Shown here piece by piece: positions 8,735 to 14,381 of a DNA stretch of 47,538 nt. The stretch's first letter is position 1; every line of letters starts with the position of its first letter. Origin of the DNA: a virus; the IMG/VR virus record IMGVR_UViG_3300048919_000044, positions 1-47,538 of that record, one strand, 5' to 3'. Below the pieces are notes generated by a model. The model was not told the DNA's origin. It searched no databases and saw only the letters and a program-made list of their open reading frames with translations. A program made the position numbers and the translations under genes.

Positions 8735-8910
8735 TCGAGGGCCTAACATCGGCAAGCTACAAGTTCAGGCGCCATCGCGTGCGCTACGACGTAGAAGGGC
8801 TTCAGCACTTTGTCGAGCGAAGGGTTCTATTCCGATGGCGCTTGATCGCTAGGTGCGGATCTTTCAAGGACTGCATATGGCTTGTCAATCGATTTGAAGG
8901 GATCGAATAA
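8731..8910 (+). CDS. Small hypothetical protein (59 aa, MIEGLTSASYKFRRH...)
   Basis: Below the ORF-track cutoff. ATGA coupled. No internal stop (checked). Confidence 0.4.
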   Translation: MIEGLTSASYKFRRHRVRYDVEGLQHFVERRVLFRWRLIARCGSFKDCIWLVNRFEGIE

Positions 8911-8959
8911 TTCAAAAACCACTAGCCAAGCAAGTTAACCGCCAGTATGATTTGCGAAC

Positions 8960-9066
8960 AGCCTTGGCGGGCTTTCAATTCAGTAAGGCTAGAGCGATGC
9001 AGTGCATGTACTGAACATGTCCGCCAATTCCAGAAATGGAAACTGCATCGCTCTAGCCTTTTTTGT
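8960..9066 (+). terminator. Structured terminator element E1
   Basis: Perfect 19-bp basal stem 8985..9003/9042..9060 followed by a T6 run. Two inner hairpins: 9005..9019, and 9028..9041 with a GAAA loop. The linker 9021..9027 is complementary to upstream 8964..8970. Confidence 0.65.
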
Positions 9067-9083
9067 GGGGCAAGGAAATGGAA

Positions 9084-9425
9084 ATGTCAGATCGTGAATT
9101 GCTGGAGTCCGCGGCAAAGGCTGCGGGCATGACAAGGCCGGTCGATGATAATGGCGTGTGGTCTGCGTGGGTCGGATCGCCAGAAGCTGGCCACTGGTGG
9201 AATCCGCTTGAGGATGACGGCGATGCGCTTCGACTGGCGATCAAGCTGGGAATTTGCATTCAGTTCATTCCTGAGTGCGACACAGTTCAGGTCTATCAGG
9301 AGCGAAGCGAAACAGGGGAGCCTTTCAACATTCATGTGGGCGCCCTTGGCGATATCGAAACGCGCCGCGTAATCGTCCAGGCCGCCGCCGAGATCGGCAA
9401 GTCCATGCAGGAGCAGGCGAAATGA
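9084..9425 (+). CDS. Hypothetical protein (113 aa)
   Basis: ATG 9084 (MSDRELLESAAKAAG) with AAGGA 7 nt upstream. Alternative start 9078. Confidence 0.65.
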   Translation: MSDRELLESAAKAAGMTRPVDDNGVWSAWVGSPEAGHWWNPLEDDGDALRLAIKLGICIQFIPECDTVQVYQERSETGEPFNIHVGALGDIETRRVIVQAAAEIGKSMQEQAK

Positions 9426-10412: not shown

Positions 10413-10690
10413 GCACCCCATGCGAAAAGCACGCCTTGCTTCCAGTAGTCGGCCAGTCCCCGTGCGCAGGGTGCGAGATTGAAAGGCTGAGGGCTGAGAA
10501 TAATTCGCTTCTGACCGCGCTAAAGGGAATGACATCAATGTACGGCTACTGCTGGGACTTGGTTGATGGTGGATTGCTGTGCATGCAGGACAACGTGCAG
10601 CGCTTCGAGGATGCCCATGAGGCGGCGCAGAAGGTTGTCGCCGCTATGAGCAAAGACCCATTGGCCAGCAAGGAGAAACAAAATGATTGA
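10409..10690 (+). CDS. Hypothetical protein (93 aa)
   Basis: ATGA-coupled internal start (MSTPCEKHALL). Confidence 0.6.
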   Translation: MSTPCEKHALLPVVGQSPCAGCEIERLRAENNSLLTALKGMTSMYGYCWDLVDGGLLCMQDNVQRFEDAHEAAQKVVAAMSKDPLASKEKQND

Positions 10691-10886
10691 CGGTCGCCGC
10701 CTGATGGCTGGCCAGCTCGCAATCTCCATGCTTCAGCAGTGGTATTCGATCTGGGAGGATTTCCAGGGTAATCGCTCTGGCGAGATGCGCCGGCTTGCTC
10801 TGCATGCAAAGGCTCGCGGGCTTGTTCATCACGATCGATGCTTGATGCAGTGCGAGGCTTATATGGTGGCCAATCCAGGCCAGTAG
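10683..10886 (+). CDS. Hypothetical protein (67 aa)
   Basis: Overlaps the upstream gene end. Last gene before element E2. Confidence 0.5.
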   Translation: MIDGRRLMAGQLAISMLQQWYSIWEDFQGNRSGEMRRLALHAKARGLVHHDRCLMQCEAYMVANPGQ

Positions 10887-10907
10887 CGGTATGATGTGAG
10901 TTCGGGT

Positions 10908-11036
10908 GTAGTAGCCCGGCGTTAATGGATCGAGGGTAACAAAGGTTTAAGACTGCACCGTTCCTGTTGGGTTGAGCTTCCCCCTCGATCCAGACTCAAC
11001 AGGTCTACTACCGGTGCAGTCTTAAGCCTTTTTTTG
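10908..11036 (+). terminator. Structured terminator element E2 with upstream complements to its loop and bulge
   Basis: 19-bp basal stem 10942..10960/11012..11030 followed by T7. 11-bp inner stem 10963..10973/10993..11003. Loop 10982..10992 pairs with 10926..10936 (11 bp). Bulge 11005..11011 pairs with 10908..10914 (7 bp). Confidence 0.7.
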
Positions 11037-11047
11037 TGGGTGCGAAT

Positions 11048-11758
11048 ATGCGTAGCGCAAATTCTTTTAAGAAAGGCCAGGTATACGCAGTATTGTTTTC
11101 TGATGGCTGGACAAAGATAGGAAGAGGTCGAGTCGCTGCAAATCGAATAGCGGCTCATGTTGGGTCGTCAAAAATACGAGGCGCGACGCTTGTTGATTCA
11201 GTCGTATCGGGAGTTCTATTCGATACGGTAAGCGCAGAGAAAAGGCTTATAGATTACTGCACTGCATCTTGCACAGAAAAGCATGCAAGTTAGTGGTTTA
11301 AGGGTGTCGATATTAAGAGGATTTCAGAAATAATTGACGCCGAGTATTGCGGTGAAATGCCAGAGGAAATAAAAAACTTTGTCGAAGCCGAGAGGGAAAA
11401 GGGAAGGCTGGCTATTTCCAAATATATGAAACACCAGCCTGTGGAGCGCGCAGTATTTGACAATGAGAAATGGGCGGCTTCTATGTCTCATGCGTCTGTT
11501 ATGAGTGCTATGTATGGAGGATGGATGTACGGCGGCGATCTTTTCGCGCCGATAGATGGCGGGCCTAGCAAATTCAAGCTATTTTCTGCGCTAGCTCTAT
11601 ACAGCATGAGCACAGAAGAAATAGTAGACGCCTACATCACGATCAGTGACGATCAAGATGAGGGCATATCTTTTCTGATGAGTGTGGCGGAAACGTCAGC
11701 AAGATCTATCCTCGCTGCCGAGAAAATAGAACCTGAAAAGGCCCTTGGTCATGGCTGA
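11048..11758 (+). pseudogene. T5orf172/MUG113 (GIY-YIG-like) domain gene interrupted by a single in-frame TAG at 11291..11293
   Basis: ORFs 11048..11293 and 11357..11758 share a frame, with 21 sense codons between them. GQVYAVLFSDGWTKIGRG ... KHAS*WFKGV, where the family usually has (G/R)EWF. Visibly lower GC. Confidence 0.55.
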
Positions 11759-14061: not shown

Positions 14062-14381
14062 GGAATCTCTTTGATACCGATATCCAGTGATAGAGGGTTT
14101 GGGCATGAAGCGCGACTGATCAACCAACGCCAGCGACGCGGAGAACAGCTTCCGCCAGCCCGCATCACGCGGAAACCATCGTCTTTATCGAGAAGCCCCC
14201 GGCTTGCAGGCGTAGTAGGCAGAAAGCCGAAACCGGCATAAGTCATCACCGGGTGCTTCTCGATGCAGATGAATGATCTACGAGCGGCTGCTGCTGAACA
14301 GCGTAAGCGGTGACAGATGTTACTGGGATCAGCTCCAGGCATTCGCATCATAGAGTCAGATGAAAATCTGGCTCGCCGGTT

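Follow-up and report, generated by a model that had tools for sequence, protein, structure and literature searches.

Why should a transcription terminator carry, in both of its unpaired segments, the exact complements of sequences located immediately upstream of it? The question is raised by a hairpin in a viral DNA of 47,538 nucleotides (nt), positions 1 to 47,538 of the IMG/VR record IMGVR_UViG_3300048919_000044, which is referred to here as the window. The hairpin belongs to a cassette, E2, which occupies positions 10867–11040 of the plus strand and is one of three paralogous cassettes in the window, together with E1 on the plus strand and E3 on the minus strand. The reading that we favour, with a probability of about 55%, is that E2 is an RNA similar to the C4 antisense RNA of P1 and the CI RNA of P4, which controls its own terminator, presumably through action in trans, and gates variable cargo genes, among them antirepressors in some alleles.

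Architecture of the E2 cassette

The E2 cassette begins with a promoter-like site, TGGCCA-17 nt-TATGAT (10867–10895), which was identified by a consensus scan directly 5' of the first complement. The sequence CCAGGCCAGTAGCGGTATGAT at this site is kept in every module of the E2 type and of the related E5 and E6 types. The predicted promoter partly overlaps the C-terminus of the upstream gene, and transcription probably starts near 10902. The site is followed by a leader hairpin (10903–10918), predicted by folding, with a CGGG/CCCG stem and the 8-nt loop UGUAGUAG. The last seven nucleotides of the loop form box a1 (GTAGTAG, 10908–10914). The second box, b1 (TGGATCGAGGG, 10926–10936), is paired in the predicted minimum free energy (MFE) fold of the nascent RNA.

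The scaffold downstream of the boxes is composed of a basal stem and an inner hairpin. The basal stem (10942–10960/11012–11030) has 19 base pairs (bp), one of which is G·U, and is extended to 20 bp by the pair A10941–T11031, so that its strands span 10941–10960 and 11012–11031. The inner hairpin (10963–11003) consists of an 11-bp stem (10963–10973/10993–11003) with two G·U pairs and an apical loop (10974–10992). The 3' part of this loop is box b' (CCCTCGATCCA, 10982–10992), which is the exact 11-nt complement of b1. Box a' (CTACTAC, 11005–11011), the exact complement of a1, fills the 7-nt junction that adjoins the 5' end of the basal 3' strand, as it does in the P1 C4 RNA. The first two bases of the T7 run (11029–11035) are part of the basal stem, and the run is directly followed by a conserved GTGGG (11036–11040). 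An earlier interpretation of this DNA, made from its letters only (the sequence-only reading), had described both stems, both complementarities and the T7 end, and had noted that one long-range pairing lies within the other and that both cross the basal stem. All of these coordinates were confirmed and the topology is right, whereas the promoter-like site had been missed.

The complementarities were compared with those in dinucleotide shuffles of the 100 nt upstream of the E2 hairpin. A complement of at least 11 nt to the loop has a probability of 2e-4, and a complement of at least 7 nt to the junction, taken alone, of 0.053. Two colinear nested matches with a summed length of 18 were found in 0/3000 shuffles. 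The MFE structure of the RNA from 10900–11040, calculated using RNAfold, is the terminator hairpin, with an energy of -57 kcal/mol (z = -3.9; 0/200 shuffles as low). The 19–20-bp stem abuts the T7 run as in intrinsic terminators, and a simple terminator scan missed E2 because it limited the loop to 8 nt. According to these predictions, the E2 hairpin is a real intrinsic-type terminator.

Covariation in related alleles

The first direct searches for E2 recovered no relatives. Scaffold patterns derived from E1 and E3, followed by the promoter/leader probe CCAGGCCAGTAGCGGTATGAT, led to related viral and metagenome contigs (given L numbers), which carry diverged E2 alleles, the further types E4, E5 and E6, and variants of E1. 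Five distinct E2-type sequences were aligned (alignment A3), with the long-range helices entered as pseudoknot brackets. Three of the seven a1:a' pairs and eight of the 20 basal-stem pairs are changed on both sides, with 100% of the cells paired in each helix. The 11-bp inner stem has two such changes and 98% of its cells paired, and the 11 pairs of b1:b' are invariant and paired in 100% of the cells. Altogether, 99.6% of the cells are paired, and the total of 13 two-sided pair changes was reached by 0/500 shuffles. When the 3' partners were slid by 1–3 columns as a control, only 30–53% of the cells were paired.

The a1/a' sequences of the E2 type are GTAGTAG/CTACTAC in the window and in contigs L191 and L180, GTCGAAA/TTTCGAC in L171, and GTCGTAA/TTACGAC in L177. 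E4 has GTGAGAA/TTCTCAC and E3 has GTGGAAC/GTTCCAC. In the modules of E2, E3 and E4, a1 is always in the same hairpin loop and a' always in the same junction. The E1 type behaves in reverse, with constant a1/a' and variable b1/b', for which the codes are TTCAGTA/TACTGAA, TTTGGTA/TACCAAA and GGATTA/TAATCC. Covariation in b1:b' and in the stem of the a1 hairpin is seen in the E1 variants of L020, L186 and L194, and the E1-type a1-hairpin stems compensate as AGCC/GGCT, CACC/GGTG and CTCACC/GGTGAG. One change of A to G in an E1-type a' retains the pairing as a U·G wobble.

Each of the long-range helices thus has covariation support in one subfamily, a1:a' in the E2 type and b1:b' in the E1 type. 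Because the changes in the diverged copies are compensatory, this comparison of alleles shows both helices to be selected RNA contacts.

A covariance model of E2 scores 188 bits on the plus strand and 27 bits on the reverse strand. This asymmetry and the conserved G·U pairs indicate that the element is an RNA transcribed as the plus strand. The model matches E3 with 52 bits (E = 3e-11) and, over the full length, E4 with 61 bits, E3 with about 50 bits, E5 with about 41 bits and E6 with 29–37 bits, the scores of E5 and E6 being partly due to the common leader. It has no match to E1, to P1 C4 or to the hairpins of contigs L001–L005, and has one match in 845 kb of NinB loci. The a1:a' boxes are predicted to be orthogonal, with energies of -6.7 to -10.9 kcal/mol for cognate pairs and of -5.0 kcal/mol or weaker for non-cognate pairs. 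Modules of the E6 type (L183, L185, L186, L192 and L090) have the same promoter and a1 hairpin, with a1 GTCAGAT and a' ATCTGAC, and the 3' strand of their basal stem runs directly into the GGAG ribosome-binding site (RBS) of the next gene.

A proposed switch, its precedents and its rivals

Folding of nascent RNAs was predicted for nine modules, using transcripts that end just 5' of the basal 3' strand. The MFE structure contains the complete b1:b' helix in eight of the nine modules, and in six of them the complete a1:a' helix as well. The leader-paired nascent fold is 5–16 kcal/mol better than the best fold in which a1 and b1 are blocked. In E2, the nascent fold also pairs the start of the terminator 5' strand (10943–10950) with residues 10972–10979. 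When a1 and b1 are blocked, the inner hairpin is predicted to form and to pre-organise the terminator. At full length, the terminator fold of E2 (-56.6 kcal/mol) prevails over the leader-paired fold (-41.2 kcal/mol). The sequence-only reading had left a choice between a pseudoknot and an alternative conformation. The nascent MFE structures and the covariation speak for competing conformations, whereas the simultaneous presence of both folds is sterically implausible because no linker (0 nt) separates b' from the inner 3' strand or a' from the basal 3' strand.

We propose the following mechanism. A sigma-70-type promoter would drive a leader that presents the target boxes, a1 in the loop of a GC hairpin and b1 just before the scaffold. 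The scaffold RNA, in which the basal stem of about 20 bp and the U-run constitute the intrinsic terminator, would display the anti-boxes b' and a' in its interior. In a nascent transcript, b1:b' and then a1:a' are predicted to form while the basal stem still lacks its 3' strand, which would lock the basal 5' strand in a closed loop and allow the polymerase to read through into the accessory gene. By analogy with P4 CI RNA, P1 C4 RNA and pT181-type attenuation, scaffold RNA from earlier transcription would expose a' and b' and could bind, in trans, the a1 and b1 of later transcripts. Such binding would block the cis antiterminator, so that the inner hairpin and the basal stem form and transcription terminates. 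In this scheme the cassette would address itself and serve an accessory-gene slot as a negative-feedback or immunity switch, and the use of a1:a' in the E2 type, or b1:b' in the E1 type, as a specificity code would explain the presence of three orthogonal copies in one prophage.

The closest architectural precedent, which the sequence-only reading had overlooked, is provided by the C4 and CI antisense RNAs; the match makes an RNA acting in trans a likelier effector than the ligand or phage protein suggested there. The comparator for C4 was the immI region of P1, in which the promoter P1c4, "putative" a1 and b1 sites, the 77-nt C4 RNA, a2, b2, icd and ant are annotated. The parts of E2 follow one another as in the C4 and c4-a1b1 elements of P1 and P7: first the promoter, then a short GC hairpin whose 8-nt loop holds a1, then b1, and finally the scaffold RNA. 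As in P1 C4, the scaffold of E2 has a long basal stem, its apical loop carries b', and a' occupies the 7-nt junction that adjoins the 3' strand of that stem. The a1 hairpin is CGGG-UGUAGUAG-CCCG in E2, with a1 as the last seven loop nucleotides, and CCGG-UUUUGACAG-CCUG in P1. The a and b boxes are allele-specific, as are those that determine P1/P7 c4 heteroimmunity, and C4 controls an antirepressor gene class (PMC12197685) of which a member is located downstream of some alleles of the present family. In contrast to C4, E2 has no a2/b2 at the RBS, and nothing complementary to a' or b' is present from 11036 to where the gene starts. Its terminator is the basal stem itself, with the U-run at the end of the stem, it has one inner hairpin instead of two, b1 is 5 nt from the scaffold instead of the 66 nt in P1, a CCACC-type 3' end is missing, and three copies are present in one genome.

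None of the E1, E2 and E3 sequences reaches an Rfam threshold. The gathering thresholds are 45 bits for C4 (RF01695) and 46.7 bits for c4-a1b1 (RF03163), both of clan CL00128, and the P1 sequence scores 68.8 and 51 bits, respectively. At gathering, C4 has no match in the whole window, in which only a tRNA was found, and at E <= 10 it has none in 10700–11200, 8800–9200, 1880–2220 or four related loci. The c4-a1b1 model gives a weak match to E2 (11.3 bits, E = 4.5) at 10870–10922, which is the expected place but far below the threshold. All other permissive matches to E1, E2, E3 and the four related loci are to spurious microRNA-type hairpins. The topology is that of C4 without a match to its Rfam models, and E2 would therefore act like C4 and CI while standing, by the available tests, outside the Rfam families.

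The segments a' and b' of E2 pair and covary with upstream boxes, as expected of a CI-type antisense RNA. According to PMC4825925, which cites Sabbattini 1995 and Briani 2000, CI RNA pairs with the upstream seqA and causes termination; it is likewise a small leader RNA complementary to an upstream box of the same transcription unit. This likeness is one of description. P4 also has the downstream seqC, whereas only upstream boxes are present here, and the P4 terminators are separate from the CI scaffold, whereas the E2 scaffold is the terminator. In the Gifsy-1 prophage, which has IsrK and STnc1160, a processed downstream RNA has been proposed to modulate the terminator of IsrK and to control the antirepressor AnrP (PMC4825925). 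The Rfam model of isrK matches the a1b1 leader of P1 with 35 bits and has no match to E1, E2 or E3, and the IsrK terminator, unlike that of E2, follows the leader hairpins instead of being within the antisense scaffold. Our best reading of these comparisons is that E1, E2 and E3 are similar to the antisense RNAs C4 of P1 and CI of P4 and constitute an undescribed family.

Plasmids pT181 and pIP501 use countertranscript-driven attenuation, in which a leader segment pre-empts the terminator and the antisense RNA restores it. E2 is predicted to have the same mutually exclusive pre-emptor and terminator folds. The antisense RNA of the plasmids comes from the opposite strand, whereas the anti-boxes of E2 are located downstream on the same strand.

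Several observations weigh against a C4/CI-like switch at E2. Box pair b1:b' never varies within the E2 type, and the alleles come from related phages and therefore represent few independent events in a small sample. The terminator fold of full-length E2 is more stable than the leader-paired fold by about 15 kcal/mol, so that readthrough would hinge on kinetics. E5 does not have the leader-paired nascent fold. E6 has no U-run and its stem abuts the RBS, which suggests translational control rather than control of termination. The promoter is predicted, as are the ends of the RNA and any processing of it, and because the transcript from the cassette promoter holds both boxes and anti-boxes, a free antisense RNA may need 5' processing. 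The trans step is drawn by analogy, and the covariation suits a purely cis-acting switch equally well.

A cis-acting, co-transcriptional switch, in which polymerase speed, a protein or a small ligand decides between the folds, was the idea put forward in the sequence-only reading. It is in accord with the nascent folds and with the location of boxes and anti-boxes on one transcript. We consider it unlikely, although a serious contender, since the interior outside the paired segments is poorly conserved between types and presents no candidate ligand pocket, a1:a' is recoded between otherwise nearly identical alleles, and three mutually orthogonal copies in one genome would not be needed in cis and are typical of specificity in trans, as in P1/P7 heteroimmunity (PMC12197685). 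The recoding and the orthogonal copies, together with the precedents of P1/P7 c4 (PMC12197685) and of P4 CI RNA (PMC4825925), favour the trans step that we infer. Trans action could also be directed elsewhere: the unit of promoter and terminator, of about 135 nt, with its exposed loop and junction sequences, might be a small RNA that uses a' and b' as seeds against mRNAs of the host or of other phages, with the leader boxes serving as a decoy or folding aid. This is improbable, because a host-directed seed is expected to be fixed, yet a1 and a' are recoded jointly between alleles, and the window contains no other convincing target, neither a2/b2 nor a distant complement to a' or b'.

The match of the architecture to P1 immI and the antirepressor cargo of some alleles would agree with a canonical translational repressor of the C4 type, whose scaffold pairs with a2/b2 at a downstream RBS and for which a1 and b1 are accessory. 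We regard this as very improbable: neither the stretch from the T-run to the start codon nor the first part of the gene contains an a2/b2-like complement, the only other near matches (14790 and 15466) are inside membrane-protein open reading frames (ORFs) and are not above chance, and copies of an identical cassette precede different cargo genes with different RBS regions. The hairpin could, finally, be an ordinary terminator of the nin region with fortuitous complementarity, or an element that acts as DNA, for example a cruciform, the end of a miniature transposon or a recombination site. E2 is positioned just 5' of NinB, a location that we take to resemble that of lambda tR2, and homology between phages breaks right after the T-run-GTGGG. 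This explanation is scarcely credible, and is largely refuted by the compensatory changes in four helices, including long-range ones; in addition, the G·U pairs are valid on one strand only, the shuffle statistics oppose chance, and relatives contain few long-stem terminators (12 in 1.09 Mb). Retrons, riboswitches, group I introns, integron attC sites and transposon ends were dropped from consideration, as there is no reverse transcriptase gene and no Rfam support, the G·U pairs are strand-specific, and the covariation fits RNA–RNA pairing.

A broader picture can tentatively be drawn, which we ourselves rate as rather doubtful. The cassettes may represent an undescribed family of naturally orthogonal, self-addressed antisense-RNA terminators that provide up to three RNA channels per phage, in both early operons, and insulate slots for accessory genes and antirepressors. 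Their recoded boxes could confer allele-specific cross-immunity or anti-immunity, and the upstream a1 and b1 of C4-type RNAs might be cis antitermination elements that are overridden in trans.

The upstream a1 and b1 sites of C4 are annotated in P1 only as "putative" targets, whereas here the upstream boxes are the only targets and covary with the anti-boxes, and the scaffold is the terminator, which makes the role of upstream pairing directly testable. At least six specificities are built on the common chassis (three E2 a1:a' codes, E3, E4, three E1-type b1:b' codes, E5 and E6), and such a set would be a ready-made kit of RNA-controlled terminators for synthetic biology. The presence of identical cassettes before varied cargo, including antirepressors, points to an RNA layer over accessory genes and induction in soil temperate phages of the Pseudomonas type, the host being deduced. 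The E2 region is annotated by neither Rfam nor gene callers, and so constitutes an annotation gap.

Cargo genes, paralogous cassettes and distribution

The gene following E2 (11048–11758, plus strand) is T5orf172-like, and its ATG at 11048 is separated by 12 nt from the end of the T7 run. The sequence-only reading had placed E2 before an accessory gene; the position is correct, and the gene carries an in-frame TAG (11291–11293). The ORF 11048–11293 is in frame with the ORF 11357–11758 through this single codon. The homologue in L180, which matches PF10544, is intact and has 58% identity across the TAG position, where it has a Glu codon (GEWF, compared to S-stop-WF here). The gated gene in the window therefore carries a nonsense codon, which would have to be suppressed unless the gene is a pseudogene. 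No gene was called in 10887–11356 (470 nt).

Other E2 alleles precede different genes. The T5orf172 domain is found downstream in the window and L180, DUF551 in L177, L181 and L194, a Rha/KilAC antirepressor (PF03374, 5e-27) in L171, and an unknown Cys-rich protein in L191; the E6 module of L183 also precedes a Rha/KilAC antirepressor (Rha/ANT). Homology between phages breaks a few bases past the T-run-GTGGG. This boundary and the identical cassettes before different genes indicate that the cassette is a portable regulatory unit placed before accessory-gene slots, some of which hold the class of gene that C4 controls in P1. A (G)TGGG motif is conserved after every T-run (11036–11040, 9065–9070, 1953–1949 and all related modules), and could mark a recombination boundary or else belong to the terminator.

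The window is a lambdoid prophage, and its NinB region has about 75% DNA identity to Pseudomonas phage D3 and relatives. E2 is located in the nin region, between small genes of the DUF1382 and phiTE_015 types upstream, and NinB, a NinI-like phosphatase, NinG and an HNH gene downstream. The three cassettes have a common plan: a promoter-like site, a1 in the loop of a small hairpin, b1, and a basal stem of about 20 bp, inside which the apical loop holds b' and a 7-nt junction holds a'; the T-run and GTGGG come last.

E1, a type I cassette (8923–9070, plus strand), has the promoter-like site TAGCCA-17-TATGAT (8923–8951), the boxes a1 TTGGCGG (8964–8970), b1 TTCAGTA (8979–8985), b' TACTGAA (9009–9015) and a' CCGCCAA (9021–9027), a 19-bp basal stem (8985–9003/9042–9060), and a T6 run (9059–9064) followed by GTGGGG. 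Its two colinear 7-nt complements are equalled or exceeded in 45/3000 shuffles. E3 was absent from the sequence-only reading, to which E1 was known. It was found on the minus strand (2132–1949) with a sequence-independent detector, which requires that a long basal stem enclose an interior and lead into a T-run, and that the leader and this interior have complementary segments in colinear order. The -35 site of E3 is TTGAGG (2132–2127) and the -10 site is TATTAT (2110–2105); the boxes are a1 GTGGAAC (2088–2082), b1 GGATCGACGGCT (2064–2053), b' AGCCGTCGATCC (2010–1999) and a' GTTCCAC (1984–1978). The basal stem of about 20 bp (2049–2029/1977–1957) is followed by a T5 run (1959–1955), a C, GTGGG (1953–1949), an RBS and the ATG at 1939, which opens a 366-residue ORF of unknown protein; next is an ERF recombinase. 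E3 is located in the leftward early operon. The 12 long-stem terminators mentioned above were found with the same detector in loci collected around NinB or around the gene after E1, and a control with shuffled leaders gave a total of one case with leader complementarity.

The b boxes of E2 (10926–10936) and E3 (2064–2053) have GGATCGA in common. Non-cognate b1:b' duplexes of E2 and E3 are predicted to have about -14 kcal/mol, compared to -20 to -23 kcal/mol for cognate ones, and the two cassettes might therefore cross-talk at b and be distinguished only by a1:a'.

Cassettes of this family look sparse. Searches of cultured phages by megablast and blastn, with the region or with E1 and E2 alone, gave nothing for the elements; only NinB was matched, in D3-like Pseudomonas phages. 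When 185,579 species-representative genomes were scanned for exact matches, the promoter probe and the E2 scaffold were both absent, and the E2 scaffold pattern had 0 matches in metagenomes. With the flanking 67- and 81-residue proteins as anchors, no relatives were found in viral contigs. The gene after E1 and NinB led to 80 loci each, almost none of which had a module, and the cassette is thus not tied to either gene. The family looks rare, or confined to poorly sampled phages of soil and rhizosphere.

In viral contigs, the E2 scaffold pattern matched only an unrelated hairpin family in L001–L005 (for example, L004 2147–2225). This hairpin has a 21-bp stem, shares the 12-bp stem core AAGACTGCACCG with E2, is located after a small HNH-type gene, and has its own terminator. 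The RBS region of the following gene has a complementarity of about 5+7+4 bp to the interior (GGGGAUGUCCUGAACGGGG) of this hairpin, which may be another antisense-type element.

An ORF of 67 residues (10683–10886, within 10645–10890), which ends within the E2 promoter-like site, is an apparent insertion relative to L180, L171 and L177, where the upstream gene ends in PLANPGQ and a stop codon within the cassette promoter. The ORF is flanked by repeated TGGCCA, in the contexts gacccattggcca and gtggccaatccagg, and its protein was found only in two contigs identical to the window. Further downstream, at 14381–14457 on the plus strand, there is a tRNA-like gene that scores 47 bits with the Rfam tRNA model and to which ARAGORN assigns no anticodon; its anticodon stem closes a loop of 6 nt (c-g-a-a-a-g) instead of the usual 7. 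The gene is followed by a clean terminator (14537–14563) and is preceded, just 5', by a 24-nt inverted repeat (14179–14272), the arms of which are 83% complementary and 46 nt apart.

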